This document shows, piece after piece, positions 20,996 through 50,404 of a stretch of 64,000 nucleotides of DNA. A program made the translations under genes and the position numbers. Positions within the stretch are counted from its first letter, which is position 1, and every line of letters begins with the position of its first letter. The notes beneath the pieces were generated by a model. It was not told where the DNA came from, made no database searches, and saw only the letters and a program-made list of their open reading frames with translations. This DNA is from Candidatus Poribacteria bacterium (GTDB taxonomy: Bacteria > Poribacteria > WGA-4E > PCPOR2b), in contig OZ242326.1 in NCBI GenBank assembly GCA_965208325.1, forward strand, positions 2,752,001 to 2,816,000, read 5' to 3'.

Positions 20996-21778
20996 ATGCA
21001 GAAATTCCTGTGGGACGGTGACAAAGCGGCTGCAATCAGCCTCACGTTTGATGACGGAATGCAGTCGCATATCGACACAGCCGTACCGTTGTTGGAAAAA
21101 TATGGACTGCGGGGGACATTTTACATCACGGGTAGCGGCGAAGACTATGGACGCCAGGCGTTAATGCGTTTTCGTCCCACTTATGAAGCCGGGCACGAAA
21201 TCGGCAATCATTCGATACACCACTGGTGTTCCTCTGCAGGCGTCATGGCGCCGGACCACCGCGGACTTGAGTATCGGACACTCGGCGAGATGGAAGAGGA
21301 GTTGCTCGAAGCGGACAGAAGATTCAAAGCCGTTTTTCCGGAAGTGAGGCGATGGACCTTTTGCTACCCTTGCTACAATACATTCGTTGGGAAGGGACTT
21401 AATCGGAGAAGCTATGTCCCAATCGTGGCGAGCAACTTCTTCGCAGCACGGGCGGGCGGCGAAATAGGTAATTCTATCAATTCACCCTATCATACAGACT
21501 TGCACTGCTTGAATTCCTTTAAATGTGAGCAGCGCGGCGCTGCTGAACTCATTGGACTAGTTGAACAAACAGCAAATCAGGGAGGATGGAGCATCCTCAC
21601 CTTTCATGGAATTGGCGACGGTCATCTGCTCGTCGCACGGTCAGATTTTGAGGAGGTGTTAGCCCATCTTGATGGTGCTCGTAATCGCATCTGGACTGCG
21701 CCCTTAATACGTATCGCGGAATATCTCCACGACAATAAAGCAATGCCCGCGAATACTAGGGGCGAGTCATGCGATTAA
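20996..21778 (+). CDS. Polysaccharide deacetylase family protein
   Basis: SLTFDDG, GHEIGNHSIHH and LTFHG. Confidence 0.85.
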   Translation: MQKFLWDGDKAAAISLTFDDGMQSHIDTAVPLLEKYGLRGTFYITGSGEDYGRQALMRFRPTYEAGHEIGNHSIHHWCSSAGVMAPDHRGLEYRTLGEMEEELLEADRRFKAVFPEVRRWTFCYPCYNTFVGKGLNRRSYVPIVASNFFAARAGGEIGNSINSPYHTDLHCLNSFKCEQRGAAELIGLVEQTANQGGWSILTFHGIGDGHLLVARSDFEEVLAHLDGARNRIWTAPLIRIAEYLHDNKAMPANTRGESCD

Positions 21779-21795
21779 CATCATAAACCCAAATA

Positions 21796-22998
21796 ATGCA
21801 AAACCTGCCAAAGATTACGTTTACGTGGTTATCTTTATGCCTGCCGATTTATCTGCCAACCTTCCTGCTCTCCTTTGGGCAAGGCGCCCTCATTCCAACA
21901 CTGCCGCTCTATGCGAAATCCTTCAACGTCTCCTTCAGCCTAATCGGTCTCGCTGTCGCCATGCATGAAGTCGGTATATTAATCGCCGACGTGCCCGCCG
22001 GTATCTTGCTAGATCGGGTTGGACGCAAATTGTCAATGTTAATTGGTTCTGTCGTGTTGGGGCTATCCATGCTCGGTATTGGACTTGCTCACTCCTTCTA
22101 CGAGTTGGTGGTCTATCAACTAATCGGAGGCATGGGCGGTGCGCTATGGGCGGTTGCCCGGTACACATACATGACAGATGCTATCCCGCGTGCGGTGCGC
22201 GGCAGATCGCTGGCACTGTTTGGCGGTATAAACCGAATTGGAACTTTTTTGGGTCCCGCTGCCGGGGGTTATTTCGGCACACATTATGGGCTGCGGTCTC
22301 CCTTTTTTATGTTTTCCGCAATTATGGCAATGAATTTCCTTCTATCTATCTTCTTCATTGCCAGAAGAAAACTTCAACCCCCAACAGTTCATTATTCGTT
22401 ATACTGGAAACGGTTCGTCGCTGTGTTAAAGTCGAATTACCGTGCGTTGGCACCAGCGGGCACTGCACATGTCTGCGCACAAGCGCTTCGGACAGGCAGG
22501 GGGATTATTATACCGCTCTACGGTAGTGAAATCGTCGGGCTGGATGTTCAAGCAGTAGGGCTTATTCTGAGCATTTCATCATTTGTTGACCTGTCGATGT
22601 TTCCGCTGGCTGGATTCATCATGGATCGATTCGGCAGGCGCTACGCCGTTGTCCCCTGTTTCTTCATTTTTGGACTGGGGATGGCGATGGTGCCGTTTAC
22701 TGGGAGTTTCGCCTCACTCCTCGTTGCAACCATTGTTATGGGGTTTGGGAATGGGCTTGGTTCCGGCACCATGATGACGCTTGGCGCTGACTTGGCGCCG
22801 CAGGAAGGCACAGGCGAATTCCTCGGAGTATGGCGGTTGATTGGGGACATTGGCGGTGTTACAGGTCCTTTGGTCGTGGGAAATATAGCGCAGGTGTGGG
22901 GGCTGCCAATCTCAGCTTTCGTTTTGGCAGGAATCGGATTGACAGGAGTTGCAATCTTCCTTCGGCTCGTCCCGGAGACCTTGCGCCGAGACAAATAG
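21796..22998 (+). CDS. MFS transporter
   Basis: About 12 TM helices; GILLDRVGRK and GFIMDRFGRR motif A. Confidence 0.92.
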   Translation: MQNLPKITFTWLSLCLPIYLPTFLLSFGQGALIPTLPLYAKSFNVSFSLIGLAVAMHEVGILIADVPAGILLDRVGRKLSMLIGSVVLGLSMLGIGLAHSFYELVVYQLIGGMGGALWAVARYTYMTDAIPRAVRGRSLALFGGINRIGTFLGPAAGGYFGTHYGLRSPFFMFSAIMAMNFLLSIFFIARRKLQPPTVHYSLYWKRFVAVLKSNYRALAPAGTAHVCAQALRTGRGIIIPLYGSEIVGLDVQAVGLILSISSFVDLSMFPLAGFIMDRFGRRYAVVPCFFIFGLGMAMVPFTGSFASLLVATIVMGFGNGLGSGTMMTLGADLAPQEGTGEFLGVWRLIGDIGGVTGPLVVGNIAQVWGLPISAFVLAGIGLTGVAIFLRLVPETLRRDK

Positions 22999-33300: not shown

Positions 33301-33420
33301 GAAACCGACGCTTTTTTCTTGAAAACTCGGTTTCTTTAACGGAGTAGCATATTCAAGCTACTCCCCCATTCCCATCGGCTTGTAATTCCAAGCCCTAATT
33401 CAAACCAGTTGTAAAAACGT
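33301..33420. repeat. AAACCGAG..CTCGGTTTCT palindrome-led dispersed repeat family
   Basis: Related copies at 34795, 34998-35110 and 50118-50235; the long copies share a TTCCA(A/T)GCCC..AATT tail. Confidence 0.65.
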
Positions 33421-41007: not shown

Positions 41008-42126
41008 ATGAACCTTTGGAAGAAATCAAGACCGATTTACAGCAGTGATGAATCGAAGAATGCGGAGTTGTTAGAAGTATACACATGTTGGATTAAAGGA
41101 GAGAAACTCTCGCGCAAGCAGAAACGACTGCTTAAATCCAGCCAAGACGACACACTGGTAGGGAATTTGAAGCCGCTAATCCACTTTGCCCACTACAGCT
41201 TTCGCGAAACAGAAAGTGTCTTACCTCGTCCTGGTGCAAAACAACGAATCGCTGACGCGCTAACGCGGCGAATTAAACCCACTGCAACTGAAAGCCTTCC
41301 CGACGCCATGCAATTGCAACCGGCTTACAGTATAGATCCGGTTGGAAGTGATAGTGAACTCGCTCACCCGCCTGATGCCGGAAACCTTCCGACGCATCCC
41401 CAACACCAGGTCGATCCCTCTGCTGAGACGGTAATAATCGAAAGAGAAGGTGAACCCGAAGGAATAACGCTTGCACCAGTGGAGGGCAGTTGCAATCTGA
41501 AATTAAGGACAACCCAGATTGATGGAATGCAACAGGAGTATAACATCGCCTTCAAAGAGGTAATCATTGGACGTAGCGTTGAGGCAACGATTCAGTTGAA
41601 TACCAATGCAGCAGTTTCGCGCCGGCATGCGTTGCTCACTGCTTACGGCGATAACGTTTACATTACCGACCTTGGCAGCAGTAACGGCACTTACGTTAAT
41701 GGCGTGCGCATATCTGAACCGACTCGGCTTCAGGTTGCATCTACAATTACCATCGTCAAGCAATCGCTTGAAGTCTCCGAAATTCAGCGTGAGGAAGGCG
41801 CCCTCCGTCTCTCTTTGACGGAATCCGAAGGCGAACATGTTGGACAGGTTTACACCGTCCATATCAAAGAGATTACTGTTGGGCGGGGCAGAGCCGCACG
41901 CCTCCGATTCTCCGATCCTGCCGGGACGCTTTCACGCCTGCATGCAAGATTTGAGTTGAAAAATGGAGATATATACATTACAGATCTCCACAGTACAAAC
42001 GGCACCTATGTGGATGGCGTTCCCATAGAAGGTCCGACTGTGCTTCAAACGGGCGCAACCATACAACTAGGCAGCGTTATCTGTTATGTAGTCGATATCG
42101 AACATGCGCCGTTAGTTTCTGTTTGA
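41008..42126 (+). CDS. Tandem FHA-domain protein with anti-sigma-like N-terminus
   Basis: IGRS..VSRRHA..DLGSSNGTYVNG and VGRG..LSRLHA..DLHSTNGTYVDG; no TM helix. Confidence 0.88.
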   Translation: MNLWKKSRPIYSSDESKNAELLEVYTCWIKGEKLSRKQKRLLKSSQDDTLVGNLKPLIHFAHYSFRETESVLPRPGAKQRIADALTRRIKPTATESLPDAMQLQPAYSIDPVGSDSELAHPPDAGNLPTHPQHQVDPSAETVIIEREGEPEGITLAPVEGSCNLKLRTTQIDGMQQEYNIAFKEVIIGRSVEATIQLNTNAAVSRRHALLTAYGDNVYITDLGSSNGTYVNGVRISEPTRLQVASTITIVKQSLEVSEIQREEGALRLSLTESEGEHVGQVYTVHIKEITVGRGRAARLRFSDPAGTLSRLHARFELKNGDIYITDLHSTNGTYVDGVPIEGPTVLQTGATIQLGSVICYVVDIEHAPLVSV

Positions 42127-42138
42127 ATTCTTGAGTGT

Positions 42139-43218
42139 ATGAATCAGAGACAACTTGCGTTAGCCCATTTTAACCGTGCCGCAAAGTATTACCAAAAAGC
42201 TATTTATGTCCAGGCAATTCACCATTACCTTGCGGGCTTGAAAATTGATGCCACTCGGGCTGAGATTTACGCAGACCTCGCAAAAGCGTATGAAATGCTG
42301 GGCTGCTGGGATCATGCGCTTAATTCGCTGGAAACTGCGTTGCGGTTACGGCCCGGATTCACAACAGCCCTACGGCGGAAACAGCGGATTCTGGAAGAAC
42401 AAGCGTTTTATGAGGCCACGCAAAACCGGCTAGACGTTAATCCAGAACTCCCGGTCCAACATCGTCGGAGTGAAAACTCTACCGACAATACCATTGAAAT
42501 CGAACACTCCCGCTTCACACTGACCTGTCCCGATACAACTCCGCAAAGTACGATTTCAGCCGTATGCCAACTAGCTGAACGAATCTACAATGAGGTTGGC
42601 GGGATGTTTCAGTGCTATCCCCGCCATCCAATTCCCATATCCATGGAAGATGCAAGTTTACCATCATATTCCACTCTCAATCGCACACTCCCGCCCTGGG
42701 CTGCCGCTCGATATAACAACGGCATTCAACTCATCCACCGCCCCGGAAACACTGGAACCGGGATTCTATCGACGTTGATTAGACACGAATGGGTTCATTT
42801 GACTGTTGACTTATTAGCACAAGGACAGTGCCCAAGATGGCTTGATGAAGGGCTTGCTCAGACGATTGCCCGTCCCCTTATGAATTTTGAGCACGAATAC
42901 CTAGAAGATGCAAGACAAAATCAGCAACTTTTGACAATGGATGTGTTGAAAAAACCATTCCACCAATTCGATTCCCGGCAACGCCGATTAGCATATCTTC
43001 AGTCAAGTGCGATAGTGGGATATTTGGTAAATCAATTTGGATTCGCCCGCATCCGTGAGATTCTCAATCGAATCGGAAATGGAAGCGCCTCTGAAATCGC
43101 AATCCAAGACACTTTGGGAAAAACACCGGATGAAATTTTAGCCTCGTGGCAATTGGACAATAACGGGGCAAATCATGAAACTCAGAGTAACCCTCGAACA
43201 GAGAATCCATTTGTATAA
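42139..43218 (+). CDS. TPR plus gluzincin (peptidase MA-like) metallopeptidase
   Basis: N-terminal TPRs, RHEWVH, PRWLDEGLA and LAYLQS. Confidence 0.85.
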   Translation: MNQRQLALAHFNRAAKYYQKAIYVQAIHHYLAGLKIDATRAEIYADLAKAYEMLGCWDHALNSLETALRLRPGFTTALRRKQRILEEQAFYEATQNRLDVNPELPVQHRRSENSTDNTIEIEHSRFTLTCPDTTPQSTISAVCQLAERIYNEVGGMFQCYPRHPIPISMEDASLPSYSTLNRTLPPWAAARYNNGIQLIHRPGNTGTGILSTLIRHEWVHLTVDLLAQGQCPRWLDEGLAQTIARPLMNFEHEYLEDARQNQQLLTMDVLKKPFHQFDSRQRRLAYLQSSAIVGYLVNQFGFARIREILNRIGNGSASEIAIQDTLGKTPDEILASWQLDNNGANHETQSNPRTENPFV

Positions 43219-45231: not shown

Positions 45232-46143
45232 ATGTTTTTCCTGCTTTTCATTCTCATGGCCATTATCTGTCAACAAGCTCAGGCAGAGCAAGACGATTCG
45301 TATCTCCGATTTGCCGAACACCTCTTCAATCTCGGAAACTATGAATCATCAATCCTTGAACACAAGCGCTTTCTTTTCGACCATACGGATACAGATGTGG
45401 CTGACTTTGTACGTTACCGTATCGCACAGGGTTACTTTTATCAAGAAAATAGCGTAAAGGTCCAGCAGATGTTCGAAGAACTCATGAAGACGAATCCGGA
45501 TTCCCCGCTCAATCCTCATGTTCAACTGATGTTGGGAAAATCCTACCTTGACGCTGGAGAGTATACGAGTGCCCGCTCCAATTTATCCAAGATTATTCAT
45601 GCTGATGCAGATGTTCAGCTATCGGCACAGGCACAATACCTAAAGAGTTGGTGTTATATTCATGAGTGGAATTGGTTGAAGGGGATTGCGGAATTTAGAA
45701 AGGTCAGCAGGTTCCAGCCTGATACATCCCTCAGTACGGTATCCAACCATCTTGCAGACACGACGTTAGCCAAAATTCCTTTGCCGCTCAAGTCGCCCGA
45801 CAGCGCCCTATGGCTGTCCACTCTTTTTCCTGGAATAGGGCAAATCTACGCAGGCCAACACCGTAACGGACTCATCTCCGCCGCAGTCAGTGCCACGTTT
45901 ATATATCTCGCGGCTGACGCATCTCGTGACGAGCGGTATGTAGATGTGGTAGGTATTTCGCTATTAGGTTTGTGGCATTATTGGCGGGATCGGTCCAGTG
46001 CGAAAGGCTTAGCGGTCGAACACAATCGCAAGCTGGCAATGAATCTGATTTACGAGTTAAAGCAAAAATCAGCCGGGTTTAAGCCTTTAAATTTCGAACT
46101 GCCGGAAATTGAAATTATAGCCCCCGCTTCACTGGCGCCATGA
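45232..46143 (+). CDS. Exported TPR protein with C-terminal TM2-like region (paralogue of the upstream gene)
   Basis: Signal peptide, TPRs, KSPDSALWLSTLFPGIGQIYAG; start uncertain (ORF open from 45088). Confidence 0.78.
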   Translation: MFFLLFILMAIICQQAQAEQDDSYLRFAEHLFNLGNYESSILEHKRFLFDHTDTDVADFVRYRIAQGYFYQENSVKVQQMFEELMKTNPDSPLNPHVQLMLGKSYLDAGEYTSARSNLSKIIHADADVQLSAQAQYLKSWCYIHEWNWLKGIAEFRKVSRFQPDTSLSTVSNHLADTTLAKIPLPLKSPDSALWLSTLFPGIGQIYAGQHRNGLISAAVSATFIYLAADASRDERYVDVVGISLLGLWHYWRDRSSAKGLAVEHNRKLAMNLIYELKQKSAGFKPLNFELPEIEIIAPASLAP

Positions 46144-47772
46144 GTGCTGACTGAGGATATCATCCTGGCCCAACTCATCGAAAAGTGACGTGACATTGCT
46201 GCCGTCTGCATCCATAACCCAGATACCGAAACTGCCGTTGCGGTCGCTGCTAAAAGCAATCTTCGTCCCGTCCGGAGACCAACACGGATAGCCATTGTAA
46301 CTGTCCTCGCTGGTCAAGGTGGTTCGATCCCGTGAAAACAAATCTAATACACATATCGCAGCTTGGCTCAGAGATACTTCTTTGGTAAACACCAACTTAG
46401 AACCGTCCGGACTCCAATCCGGGTGGAGTTCGGTGTCTAAGCCCTCCGTTAACCGTTCAACGCCGCCTTCTATTACTGACGCAATGACGACCGGTGCTTG
46501 GGGCGGTTGATACTCCTCTTGCGCTGCACGTATTAATTCATGCAGTTTAGTCTCCGGTTCCGGCACTGGTATCGGGACGGGCGTTGGCTCCGGCTCGGGC
46601 TCCATTTCCGGTTCTGGCTCCGGTTCTGGTTCCGGTTCTACTTCTGGTGGGAGTGCCGCGTCAGCGGCAAGAAACGCTTCAATGTCCACCACAAAGAGAT
46701 TTCTATCATAAGAATACGCAATCTGGGTGCTGTCAGGCGACCAAGTCGGTTTCGAGTCTGCCTCGCAGAAGGAAAGTTTAACGCGATTTTCTCCGTTCAC
46801 ATCCATGATGTAAATCGACGGCTTTCGAAGGGCTTTCGAATGAACGTAAGCAATGCGGTCCCCATCAGGTGACCAAGCCGGATGCCGATCATTGAAAATG
46901 TCGCCGCTGATTGACCTCGTATTGCCGCCGCGGCTATTCATTACATAGATTTGTGGTGGGGCACCGCCTTCTGAGCGACTGAAGATAATTTGCCCGCCAT
47001 TCGGTGACCAGCTAGGTTGGTCGTCGAAAAAGTGAGTAAGCGCCGTCTCGTTTGCACGGTTTGCGTCAATGACTGAAATTCCAAAAAAGTCCTCGCCGGC
47101 AACATTTCCGCGAGCGAAGACAATTTGCCCAGTCATTTTGCGTCGAATAGAAATATTTTGTACGACATTTCTGTCACCGATAGTGATACCCGGCATGTCT
47201 ACTGTGTCATAACCCGGTTTTTCTGCCGTCAAATCGTATTGTCCATCGGAAACTGGGGCAATTATGAATTGTCCCGTAGTGTTCGTAACTGACGCGCGGT
47301 CGCCCAATGTAACCAGGACGTTTCGCACTGGATTGCCGTCGTTAGATATAACCTTGCCCTCAAACTTAACGCCGGGTTCAAGGCGGAAATCGACGGTTGC
47401 CGAATCTTTGCGAGTGACGCTCACTGCCGCTCGTTGTTCCAGATAACCAAGCGCTAAAATGCGCAGGTTATAGTCGCCGCTTTTGAGCGATTCAAACCTA
47501 AAGATGCCATTAGCATCGGTAGTTGTAGTTGCGACCTCCTCAAAGATGGATTTTTCGTCTGTAACGCTCTTTTTCGTAGACAACTTGACTGTCGCATTTG
47601 CAATTCCAGCATGGGTGACCAAATCTGTAACGGAACCTGAGATGACTCCCTCCGGCGATGACACTATCCTCGGACCGACATCTTCGGAATCGTCACCGCC
47701 GCAACCAACGAAAAACACAAACAGAACAAAAATAAACAGACCAAGGTAAGAGTAACGGATTAAGTTCTCCAT
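46129..47772 (-). CDS. Lipoprotein with carboxypeptidase-regulatory-like domains and a TolB-like propeller carrying an EP-repeat insertion
   Basis: Lipobox FVGC, GSVTD..TTDANGIF, WSPDG repeats, (EP)n tract. Confidence 0.85.
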   Translation of the reverse strand: MENLIRYSYLGLFIFVLFVFFVGCGGDDSEDVGPRIVSSPEGVISGSVTDLVTHAGIANATVKLSTKKSVTDEKSIFEEVATTTTDANGIFRFESLKSGDYNLRILALGYLEQRAAVSVTRKDSATVDFRLEPGVKFEGKVISNDGNPVRNVLVTLGDRASVTNTTGQFIIAPVSDGQYDLTAEKPGYDTVDMPGITIGDRNVVQNISIRRKMTGQIVFARGNVAGEDFFGISVIDANRANETALTHFFDDQPSWSPNGGQIIFSRSEGGAPPQIYVMNSRGGNTRSISGDIFNDRHPAWSPDGDRIAYVHSKALRKPSIYIMDVNGENRVKLSFCEADSKPTWSPDSTQIAYSYDRNLFVVDIEAFLAADAALPPEVEPEPEPEPEPEMEPEPEPTPVPIPVPEPETKLHELIRAAQEEYQPPQAPVVIASVIEGGVERLTEGLDTELHPDWSPDGSKLVFTKEVSLSQAAICVLDLFSRDRTTLTSEDSYNGYPCWSPDGTKIAFSSDRNGSFGIWVMDADGSNVTSLFDELGQDDILSQHSWRQ

Positions 47773-47921
47773 AATAATTCGTGGGTACGTTTATCCGTCA
47801 GATTCAGACAAACATCCCTCCTCCTCCTTTCCTAATTCACCTGCTGGCAAAAGCCTTCTATACATCAATTCAACCCAGTGAACCAATTCACTAGTCCTTG
47901 TTTAACTGTTTAAACAGAAAT

Positions 47922-49538
47922 CTACAATTTCTGCGCGGCATTTGGTGCATTCTTCCAAAAACCGTCGTCGGCTGAATCATTTAAAACCGTTTCGGGAATG
48001 TAGTTGCTGTAATCCGAAATATTCCCGTGCGTAATCGCATAGACGACAATGTTGATTAGTTGGCGCGCTGCATGCGGCGCAAGTTCCACTAGAATCTGGT
48101 TCTTATTTTTGAACTTGCCGTAGAAGGGCTTCTGAACTGCTCCATCGACTACATGCATCATCTGTTCAGTATCAACCAAAACGGCAAGCCGCCCGTCTAT
48201 AGTGATACCCTGCAGTTCCGAATATGGCCCAAAGTGAAGGGGAATGCTATGGCCCCCCATTGAGGTAATCTTGCGCAAGGGAAAACGTAAGGGGCCATTT
48301 AGCGAATAGTATGTGTTGTAAATCGGGTGATCATTGCGAACAATGCCGAGTTGATGCTCAGGCAGGAGGCTCCGAAGTACTTTCCTTGTACCTCTCATGG
48401 CATTTTCCGCATTTCCATGCGTCGCCATATAGATGAATCCCCCACGATGCAGCACATACTCCCGCAGACTTTGAACTTCAGAGTCTGTATACTTACTTAA
48501 TCCACCCGGACGCCTAGTATTCCAAATTGGATTACTGTGAGAGTTGAATACTCGCTTTAGATGTTCTGGGCTTAAATTGGATCCACCGGGTATCGGCTCC
48601 ATGAATATGATTGGTGCCTGAAAGAACCCGGAATCGTTCATTCCGACCGAATCGACAAACTGTGTTTTTATCTTAGTTTTTTCATTTAGCGATTGCACTA
48701 GATAGGACAGACCTGCCCCAAATCGGAAATTGCCGACACCGTTGCCTCATATGTCTGCACTAGGGTGTAGCGGATCTTCAAAACGCGCCAAGTTTAATCG
48801 CCCCATTATATTTCGACCGCGCCCCACCACGATAGCACCGGGAATACCATGGGGGAGCTCAGGCATGCCGCCTCCCAATGCTACCTTGTCAGCGACATCG
48901 GAAAGCGCGTCGTCAATGTTGGCAGCACCTTCGGCACCAATCAACGAAGTCAATCCGATACGGCCGCTTTCCCTGGTCCCATCCACATTGCTTCCTGAAC
49001 TGACAACCCTATGTCCGCCGCTGAAACCGCCGCCAACGCCTTCCGAGAGCGAACCGCCTCCGCTCACCCCCGACGTTAACGGGGCATTCGAGTGAAGCGG
49101 AAGATCGACAGCAGTAGCAAGAGGTTGGGCCGGTTGGCGATTGGCACGAGAAGACTGAACGAGTCCTTGGACAGATATTTCGGCGCGCGCGGCTTGCGTA
49201 GTAGATTGAGAAACTAGGGAATTCACCGCTGTAGCCTTCGCCGCAAATACGGAGGCAGATCGTCCAGGATGAGTCGTCAGAGCCCGCGACTGCGCCGACG
49301 CTATCTGTCGTTCGATTTGAATGTCAGGCATAGGTATTATCGGCACGGAGATAGGTGCCTTGACATACGGTAATTTCTCTACGGGCTTTATCGGTTTAAC
49401 TTTCAGAATGCTCACATTTAAGGCATCAACTTCTCTAGAATTAATTTGTTTGATGGCGATTAAACTAAACACAATCGCGAGACATAGATGTACCGCTAGA
49501 GACATTAACCAGAAGCGGTACTTGTAACGAGATTTCAT
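47922..49538 (-). CDS. Membrane-anchored DUF4159-domain protein with one in-frame TGA (48747-48749); candidate selenoprotein or nonsense-disrupted gene
   Basis: ORFs 48747..49538 and 47922..48698 are in the same frame, joined by TGA plus 16 sense codons. DUF4159-like motifs LREYV..GGFI, DHPIY, GITIDGRLAV and NIVVYAITH. Confidence 0.75.
48703..48720 (-). promoter_or_regulatory. Candidate bacterial SECIS hairpin
   Basis: UGGGGCA-GGUC-UGUCCUA 7-bp stem, loop at +34 to +37 after the UGA; core GCAGGUCUG as in E. coli fdhF SECIS. Confidence 0.45.
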
Positions 49539-49662
49539 TGGGGTAACCTCCTTTTGCGAATAGTTCGGCTAGTCTTGCCGTACCGGGAAGAGAAAACGGC
49601 ACTGCAATCAGCATAAAACCGATTCTCCAATTAGTGTTTACGCTGTGTTTACTTCTATTTAT

Positions 49663-49678
49663 AGCAAGTATGATGCCA
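49663..49678 (-). promoter_or_regulatory. Sigma-54 (-24/-12) promoter
   Basis: TGGCATCATACTTGCT = GG-N10-GC, about 125 nt upstream of the 49538 start. Confidence 0.75.
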
Positions 49679-50404
49679 GTTCGGAATGCTTTAAAATGAA
49701 GTCGGATAGGGATTGTTGCCCGATAAACTGTTCAATACATGGACGGGATTGTCCGAAAATCGTGCAATGAGAGTTCGGCGGCATAAATGGAAAATGCACC
49801 AACTTGTCACTTCGTCGTGTGAGACGTTGTCCGTGCGAGAAATTGGGTATGTCTATTTCTGAAAAAGGCACGCTTTCCCGTTCGCCATTGTGACACCAAC
49901 TTCAGCCCAAAAAATAAATCGTCATGACTGTATCATTTTTGCCACACTATCCCTTTCAATGCCAAGAAACCTTCACCGTAGCTCGGTCTTGCACCAAACG
50001 GTGCATTTTGAACCAAACCTTGCCCTGTTTTGTGCACTCATTGGACGAGATTAATCTCTCAATGCATTGCTGAGTTTTTTTGAGTTCACCAATATTTGCA
50101 AAAATGTCGATAGGTTTGAAACCGTATTTTTTTCTTGAAAACTCGATTTATTAAACCGTGCAGTAAATGGAAGCCATTCCGCCATGCCCGTCCGCTTAGA
50201 TTTCCAAGCCCGAATTGATACTAGCACAATTTTCAAACCATCTCCGTGGCCAATACAAAATTTGCTAATACGTAGCACACTCGTACGTAGTAGCATTTAT
50301 CTACTGTAGAAAAGCCAATCGAAATATGGTATTATGAAAGGGTAAAGTATCTAGTCCTTCAAGAAATCGGTTCATGGGCTCTCCACTCAAAGGTATATTG
50401 CCGC

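Follow-up and report, generated by a model that had tools for sequence, protein, structure and literature searches.

A putative Poribacteria selenoprotein with a DUF4159-fold domain: an in-frame UGA at codon 264 and an fdhF-like hairpin at unusually long spacing

Two neighbouring open reading frames (ORFs) of Candidatus Poribacteria bacterium lie on the minus strand in the same frame and are parted by a TGA codon, which raises the question of whether the locus holds two genes, one broken gene, or a single intact gene in which the UGA is read as selenocysteine (Sec). The ORFs are found in a 64,000-nt stretch of assembly GCA_965208325.1 (OZ242326.1, positions 2,752,001–2,816,000), hereafter the window, whose numbering is used unless genome coordinates are named. 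Translation table 11 gives them as 48747..49538 (263 aa, ATG start) and 47922..48698 (258 aa, GTG start). Reading straight through from 49538 to 47922 yields 538 residues with one internal stop and a terminal TAG, reproducing the single frame proposed in a first-pass annotation of the window; the internal stop, codon 264, is a TGA at 48749-48747 and is flanked as ...EDPLHPSADI*GNGVGNFRFGAGLSYLVQSLNEKT.... We conclude that this is very probably one gene for a 538-residue selenoprotein, with the UGA at codon 264 encoding Sec. On the sequence comparisons set out below, the putative selenoprotein family is seen only in Poribacteria in the searches made and is not in the catalogues checked, and its predicted recoding mechanism is the known bacterial route, with an fdhF-like loop at an unusually long spacing. 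The features of the gene itself are as follows.

47922..49538, minus strand: candidate selenoprotein gene, 538 codons plus TAG, halved by standard ORF calling and with full-length, one-TGA orthologues
48747..48749, minus strand: in-frame UGA, codon 264, candidate Sec codon; the aligned column holds TGA 66 times and Cys 14 times among 81 matches
49546..49553, minus strand: strong Shine-Dalgarno sequence AAGGAGGT, 7 nt 5′ of the ATG at 49538

No purine-rich Shine-Dalgarno sequence occurs in the sequence preceding the GTG at 48698, as the first-pass annotation had stated. Public protein collections hold the gene in halves only, as clusters of a ~265-aa N-terminal piece and as a 245-aa "DUF4159 domain-containing protein"; in a protein atlas, DUF4159 clusters were matched at a score of 0.93, with no structure entry there.

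The column at codon 264, which the first-pass annotation had singled out as the place to distinguish TGA or Cys from Trp, was compared in three sets of genomes. The read-through protein was searched in 41 related genomes and 45 homologues were aligned; close homologues (47–93% identity) hold TGA in 28 of 35 cases and Cys in the remaining 7, while ten distant paralogues (~29–30% identity) show Trp at the column, within a DWWAD motif, and lack a 7-residue insert. Taking one genome per species, a scan gave 71 loci (70 titled Poribacteria), in which 81 matches reach the column with the codons TGA (66), TGT (12), TGC (2), and TGG (1). Finally, in an evenly drawn sample of 151 genomes of the phylum, the Sec subfamily is present in 69 (genera g1, 2/3; g5, 17/20; g14, 46/57; g15, 1/2; g17, 2/2); exactly one TGA occurs in 76 of 92 strong matches and none in the other 16, and the one-TGA matches span five genera, down to 44–49% protein identity. 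Given that the three sets overlap and the genomes are related, these counts are not independent trials and indicate breadth.

The raw-data check of the codon that the first-pass annotation had proposed is answered in part by contigs of four sponge-metagenome runs, from four different studies, which cover the codon and leave 48747-48749 unchanged among the 40 of 102 differences listed. The 16 codons 3′ of the TGA vary among homologues by conservative residue changes and synonymous variation, the pattern of translated sequence. In a quick tree rooted on the Trp-type paralogues, the Cys forms are nested within the Sec forms and require two changes, with Shimodaira–Hasegawa-like approximate likelihood ratio test values of 96 and 99 on the key branches. 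We also noted, beside a full Sec gene, a fragment of residues 170–301 with its own TGA and an intact hairpin core (L070:3306-3509 and L063, at G021:C1:1685358-1685753), which looks like a truncated extra copy.

The genome, a single contig of 4.7 Mb, contains the Sec machinery on which the first-pass annotation had made its reading depend. A tRNA-Sec (77.5 bits, anticodon TCA) is adjoined by both selA (588.7 bits) and selB (373.5 bits), and selD (376.8 bits) has an in-frame TGA of its own; all four matches exceed the curated cut-offs. TGA terminates 528 of 1511 long frames (35%) and is thus a stop codon with no genome-wide reassignment.

Two hairpins follow the UGA, at the offsets (+10 to +25 and +27 to +44) reported for them in the first-pass annotation.

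48722..48737 (+10..+25), minus strand: hairpin 1, GUCGG-CAAUUU-CCGAU, conserved; possible spacer or helper
48703..48720 (+27..+44), minus strand: hairpin 2, UGGGGCA-GGUC-UGUCCUA, candidate Sec insertion sequence (SECIS) element; loop at 48713-48710 (+34..+37)

Folded alone, hairpin 2 has a free energy of −7.1 kcal/mol, equalled by none of 200 shuffled sequences, and hairpin 1 one of −4.3 kcal/mol, matched by 24 of 200; z-scores of stability for 48-nt and 63-nt stretches were not significant. As folding stability alone is weak evidence, the weight of the argument comes from the comparison with other genomes. Across 56 distinct Sec sequences, the motif GGGGCAGGTCTG-Y-CC is invariant save at Y, and the GGUC loop is invariant. 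This core, GGGGCAGGTCTG[TC]CC (GGGGCA-GGUC-UGYCC as RNA), is present in all 66 Sec genes versus 4 of the 14 Cys forms (Fisher p = 6e-10, a value overstated by kinship), with the other ten Cys forms showing loop or stem changes such as GGT to GGA, CTG to TTG or CTA, and GCA to GTC or GCG. Of the 66 Sec genes, 65 show the pattern of hairpin 1, as do 13 of the 14 Cys forms. Since the Cys forms nest inside the Sec forms, their changed hairpins look like decaying relics.

This conservation is visible at the level of codon choice. Among 121 conserved codon columns for four- or sixfold degenerate residues in 64 distinct Sec genes, only five use a single codon: R272 (codon +8 from the UGA) and G274, A275, G276, and L277 (codons +10 to +13). 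The remaining columns have a median synonymous entropy of 1.53 bits. As the single-codon columns are confined to the hairpin region, the invariance of the hairpin is not a matter of protein conservation, and hairpin 2 is, judging by these alignments, under nucleotide-level constraint in Sec genes that is relaxed in Cys forms. Pairing of the proposed stems holds in 95.5% of cells and falls to 32–52% when the partners are slid; of the 33 unpaired cells (4.5%), hairpin 2 accounts for 23, all at its outermost pair, and hairpin 1 for 10, and the other stem changes are one-sided with pairing kept. Rfam scans of the TGA region and the upstream spacer returned no relevant family, the sole match being PYLIS_3 at an E-value of 3.4, a chance level.

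The likeness to fdhF of Escherichia coli K-12 is close at the loop. Reading that gene confirmed that its SECIS core carries the same GGUC loop: after the TGA, fdhF reads ...GTTGCAGGTCTGCAC..., its hairpin likewise lies within the coding sequence, the 9-mer GCAGGTCTG (RNA GCAGGUCUG) is identical in the two genes, and the GGTC/GGUC loop occupies the same codon frame, Ala-Gly-Leu. The two proteins are unrelated, and the gap between UGA and loop is filled by a second conserved hairpin here and not in fdhF. A bulged U in the upper stem of fdhF is said to be important for the binding of SelB; the present stem (GGGGCA/UGUCCU) is unbulged and contains G-U pairs.

According to the available text of a recent review, the consensus bacterial SECIS has an apical loop of 3–9 nt on an upper stem of 4–16 bp, a G in loop position 1 or 2 that is often followed by G/U, a UGA-to-apical-loop spacing of 16–37 nt, and a minimum free energy of ≤ −7.5 kcal/mol (PMC13188914). 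Hairpin 2, with a 4-nt loop beginning with G, a 6–7 bp stem, and a spacing of 33 nt, agrees with the loop, stem, and spacing values of the consensus as given there. Its kind recurs in four other Sec-candidate genes of this genome, where stems of 6–7 bp carry the loops GGU, GUU, GUC, and GGG, which favours the same reading. We infer that, in the manner of E. coli fdhF, SelB carrying Sec-tRNA(Sec) would bind hairpin 2 and so bring Sec to a ribosome at the UGA codon, and that translation would end after a 263-residue anchor fragment when selenium is absent.

What the full-length protein looks like can be predicted with more detail on the C-terminal side of codon 264 than on the N-terminal side. 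The product is predicted to be a type II membrane protein: a short basic N-terminus leads into one transmembrane helix, which a low-complexity linker of ~200 residues connects to an extracytoplasmic DUF4159-fold domain.

49452..49511, minus strand: predicted N-terminal membrane anchor, residues ~10–29, after MKSRYKYR; the top 19-residue hydropathy window starts at residue 11
47979..48797, minus strand: predicted extracytoplasmic DUF4159-fold domain, residues ~248–520, from Pfam, the 4i66 profile, AlphaFold2 (AF2), and Foldseek

The type II orientation, with the N-terminus inside and the C-terminal part outside, is predicted because there is a single strongly hydrophobic segment after MKSRYKYR; a helix at residues 4–32 was also present in a first AF2 model (13-row alignment, predicted local distance difference test (pLDDT) 35, the model otherwise being unusable). 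Pfam family PF13709 matched with 60.6 bits (cut-off 25.9), over residues 349–501 and profile positions 64–201 only. A profile built from 75 family rows matched PDB entry 4i66 at an E-value of 2.2e-23, from the strand just before Sec over the whole domain, which agrees with the first-pass placement of the stop at the start of a DUF4159-like domain; this comparison aligns the Sec column with a conserved Trp of 4i66. An AF2 model of residues 225–538 reached a mean pLDDT of 83.4 and a predicted template modelling (TM) score of 0.85, and Foldseek matched it to 4i66 (E-value 1.6e-10, TM score 0.72 on the target), followed by weak matches to class I glutamine-amidotransferase-like folds (E-values 0.013–0.3).

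In the model, Sec264 would lie in the loop after the first strand, His374 after strand 368–372 and before a helix (T-H-G-N), and His462 at the start of a helix. In the class I glutamine-amidotransferase-like fold class, the nucleophile sits after a strand and before a helix, as His374 does. A known selenoprotein of this fold group has Sec, judging by its motif, at the nucleophile position, which His374 takes up here. The combination of Sec or Cys at 264 with His374 and His462 is found in 30 of 30 subfamily rows; in the nearest relatives (19 complete rows), the corresponding residues are Trp, Cys (in DDCG), and Cys (in DYMC). The domain therefore shares fold and family with DUF4159 proteins (PF13709; 4i66 is Hoch_4089 of Haliangium ochraceum), and differs from them in having Sec or Cys for the conserved Trp, with an HPx insert and a Gly-rich 7-mer insert flanking residue 264; it differs from its nearest relatives in having His in place of both Cys. 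As Sec264, His374, and His462 always occur together where the relatives have Trp, Cys, and Cys, we propose that the three may form one reactive site, which would be redox-active or metal-binding.

Several observations weigh against the selenoprotein reading, or against hairpin 2 as its signal. The GGUC loop, at +34, is at the far end of the accepted range as given in the available text of the review, and is 10–16 nt beyond those of four other Sec-candidate genes of this genome, whose loops begin between +18 and +24, so that the spacing is an odd feature. In fdhF, the loop is at +19..+22; the first-pass annotation was right that the loop here is farther from the UGA, by 15 nt and not the ~12 nt it gave. 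The free energy of hairpin 2 alone falls slightly short of the −7.5 kcal/mol limit in the same part of the review (orthologues with C for U in the stem gain a G-C pair), and the 48-nt region from the UGA to +45 folds at −12.3 kcal/mol, which 74 of 200 shuffles matched and is not unusual. Both hairpins largely persist in the Cys forms, by the counts given above. The first-pass annotation had looked to covariation in TGA-bearing orthologues, and we found no compensatory double change at any stem pair, the shuffle control being uninformative as the stems hardly vary; the structure accordingly rests on conservation, in the form of the nucleotide-level invariance of the core, and not on covariation. 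On the protein side, the loop holding Sec (model residues 38–47) has a pLDDT below 50 and is the least confident part of the model, and a Cys that could complete a CxxU-type redox motif is missing from the vicinity of codon 264. Lastly, no gene partner conserved across both clades of the family was found in the 71 loci.

How far other explanations account for the locus depends mostly on the same comparisons. The first-pass annotation had thought Trp frequent here in DUF4159 N-termini and a TGG-to-TGA nonsense mutation plausible; the Trp of the distant paralogues bears out the first half and would suit a gene broken by a recent mutation, a pseudogene, or an assembly error. The second half is rejected, as TGA is widely conserved (66/81 locus matches and 76/92 phylum-sample matches, in five genera), the frame is open on both sides of it with no further stop, the contigs of the four studies show no change of the codon among the differences listed, and the codons that follow are substituted as translated sequence is; a broken gene is close to refuted and has a vanishingly small probability. 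Two real genes, with the UGA as the true stop of a small anchored protein and the DUF4159 domain made separately from the GTG at 48698, are what standard ORF calling yields and what the public collections hold (~265 aa and 245 aa). However, this GTG sits just 3′ of hairpin 2 with no Shine-Dalgarno sequence, the two ORFs are in the same frame without an indel in all orthologues, the Cys forms continue through the same position, and a separate C-terminal piece would be without a signal peptide, an anchor, or the first strand of its own domain, all of which makes two genes highly improbable.

Reading of the UGA as something other than Sec, either by a near-cognate tRNA inserting Trp or Cys or through genome-wide reassignment, would again fit the Trp of the distant paralogues. 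Against it stand the 35% of long frames that end in TGA, the dedicated tRNA-Sec with selA, selB, and selD, the GGUC loop shared with the fdhF SECIS, and the fact that the residue alternating with UGA within the subfamily is Cys and not Trp; we consider it very unlikely. A different matter is whether Sec is inserted through hairpin 1, or through the two hairpins as a bipartite element, and not through hairpin 2 alone. In its favour, 65 of the 66 Sec genes keep hairpin 1, the Arg codon CGA of this hairpin is among the five invariant codons, and a loop that begins at +15 in the window and at +16 in most orthologues brings it nearer to the +18 to +24 of the other candidates; without the 16 nt of hairpin 1, the GGUC loop would be at +18. 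Its loop, though, lacks a G at positions 1 and 2 both in the window (CAAUUU) and among its common forms (AAUU and CAUC; one Sec row, L100, has GAAC), and with a spacing under 16 nt it departs from the consensus, as far as the review text available sets it out, on two counts. Hairpin 1 is also kept equally in the Cys forms (13/14), where the core of hairpin 2 decays. We therefore regard this arrangement as unlikely, while hairpin 1 may serve as a spacer, a helper, or a part of the SECIS element. Sec insertion at codon 264 is, taken together, supported by the conserved TGA/Cys column, the Sec machinery, and the apparent nucleotide constraint in the hairpin, as the first-pass annotation had proposed from the window alone.

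Relatives of the gene suggest where the domain acts. In genus g5, clusters combine the Sec gene with paralogues of ~760 aa in which Sigma70_r2 and r4 domains are followed by a membrane helix, a linker, and a Cys-bearing version of the domain. One ORF of 739 aa with a single TGA (L140:1460-3679, plus strand) joins an extracytoplasmic function (ECF) sigma factor (TIGR02937, 103 bits), membrane helix, and linker to the domain, with the candidate Sec in ...HPSADIUGSGVGNFRFGAGL...; the tree row L088 is identical to it over the domain, so the two rows count as one gene. A cluster of ~28 kb (L138/L139, G010:C1:4143000-4174000) contains two opposed Sec genes, a sigma-fused Cys form, and a Trp-type paralogue, along with three CarboxypepD_reg/PD40 genes, one PD40-only gene, a DegP-like protease (Trypsin_2 and two PDZ domains), and a DDE transposase. 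ECF sigma factors with a membrane-spanning, anti-sigma-like extension that are activated by regulated proteolysis are described in the available text of PMC8999054, among them IutY of Pseudomonas putida and the groups ECF48, ECF52, and ECF53 (e.g., SCO4117). The paralogues resemble the fusions as outlined there in that Sigma70_r2/r4 is followed by one membrane helix, a linker, and an extracytoplasmic domain.

The codon-264 protein itself showed no sigma-70 r2/r4 or anti-sigma match in Pfam or NCBIfam and its membrane helix is preceded by only ~9 residues, which leaves it unable to retain a sigma factor in the classical manner. Given that sister proteins, one of them with Sec, join the domain to an ECF sigma factor and a membrane helix, the DUF4159-fold domain is by analogy most likely an envelope-side sensing or reactive module. 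A further proposal, which we hold to be speculative and unlikely in its entirety, is that Sec264, His374, and His462 make up a selenium-based sensing site for oxidants, electrophiles, or metals on the outer side of the membrane. In the fused members this site would control the ECF sigma factor, and the 739-residue form would be both sigma factor and selenoprotein. Such a site would owe its origin to a coordinated replacement of Trp/Cys/Cys, with the Sec codon arising perhaps by a single TGG-to-TGA transition, with Cys forms appearing later (TGA to TGY), the reverse of the usual Cys-to-Sec route.

Family searches of the genome turned up six matches with one in-frame TGA codon each, four of AhpC/TSA (peroxiredoxin) type, one of thioredoxin type, and one to HMA, in each case at the position of a Cys motif. 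The six TGA-bearing matches from the family searches, in genome coordinates, are:

1378231-1378602, minus strand: TGA-bearing match
4184435-4184776, plus strand: TGA-bearing match
135149-135532, plus strand: TGA-bearing match
4409456-4409866, plus strand: TGA-bearing match
2973089-2973271, minus strand: TGA-bearing match
3927364-3927639, plus strand: TGA-bearing match

Examples of their TGA motifs are TSG*T, TTS*GPC, GQW*PSC, GLT*GGC, and TEW*GSC, and three of the six (4184435, 4409456, and 2973089) have a small hairpin whose loop opens with G and begins between +18 and +24. Together, these candidates suggest a sizeable selenoproteome. A dispersed, low-copy repeat of ~150 nt was also noted, with five copies in the genome, starting with the hairpin GAAACCGA...TCGGTTTC and without an Rfam match; it occurs in the window at 50115-50262 and also at 33312-33408, and one copy lies directly upstream of selA (genome 2045210-2045357), which may be coincidence, being one of five.

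A search of the whole window for other TGA-interrupted frames gave three besides the codon-264 gene, one consisting of two adjacent same-frame genes (41008-42126 and 42139-43218) and two further frames at 876-1505 and 21708-22526. Promoter-like and terminator-like sites around the gene were no commoner than in shuffled sequence. The adjacent gene is the following.

46129..47772, minus strand: predicted lipoprotein gene, two CarboxypepD_reg domains and a PD40 (TolB-like) beta-propeller, directly downstream of the Sec gene

Its product starts with MENLIRYSYLGLFIFVLFVFFVGCGGDD and has the lipobox FVGC, with the Cys at residue 24 invariant in 27 aligned relatives; its TolB-like matches score below the curated cut-off. 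The lipoprotein gene was matched in 30 of the 71 loci, directly downstream of the Sec gene in 22 of those 30, and adjoins it in the same genus and in the neighbouring genus g5. In one genome of the same genus from which the subfamily is absent (G001), the flanks are syntenic at 78–82% nucleotide identity and ~405 bp replace a 4154-bp block (window 46108-50262 versus L143/L144) in which the Sec gene, the adjoining lipoprotein gene, and the spacer upstream are located. With the block missing between conserved flanks, the Sec gene and the lipoprotein gene appear to be gained or lost as one unit. The DUF4159-fold domain probably works with the adjacent lipoprotein.

The surroundings differ in the other large clade, where a DUF5916/CBM9 gene lies upstream in 28 of the 71 loci and genes for a rhodanese, PTPS, and GTP cyclohydrolase I lie downstream in 35. 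In the largest clade, we noted a tandem-rhodanese gene on the same strand after the Sec gene (L109:5930-6799), followed by PTPS and GTP cyclohydrolase I. Rhodaneses handle sulfur and selenium, and a functional link between the rhodanese and Sec genes is possible.

The first-pass annotation knew of no DUF4159 selenoprotein, and the catalogues consulted here contained none. No model of NCBIfam release 20 matches the codon-264 protein; neither PF13709 nor DUF4159 occurs in the text of the review PMC13188914, its family table included, or in the supplement text checked for deep-Sep and BSepDB, whose long files are possibly incomplete. A full-text literature search returned nothing pairing DUF4159 with a selenoprotein (DUF4159 by itself led to the Pfam paper), and, for Poribacteria with selenoprotein, only work on hydrogenases. 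Selenoproteins are routinely mis-annotated, and the halves of the codon-264 gene in public collections are a case of this.

For predictor builders, the candidate SECIS is useful as an fdhF-like loop that lies 33 nt from the UGA, behind a second conserved hairpin. For the phylum, SelA and SelB genes co-occur in most sponge-symbiont bins and are absent from most closely related reference genomes, as described in the available text of PMC5649159, a metagenomic study that left the use of this machinery unstated. The codon-264 family, in 69 of 151 sampled genomes and 46 of 57 in one genus, would be part of the answer to what Poribacteria use their Sec machinery for. Since Sec is normally located at reactive sites, the candidate Sec is a first hint of which residue matters functionally in the uncharacterised DUF4159 fold, and two His co-vary with it. 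The fusions with ECF sigma factors extend this to a concrete suggestion, that members of the family may act as a selenium-dependent sensor in the cell envelope.

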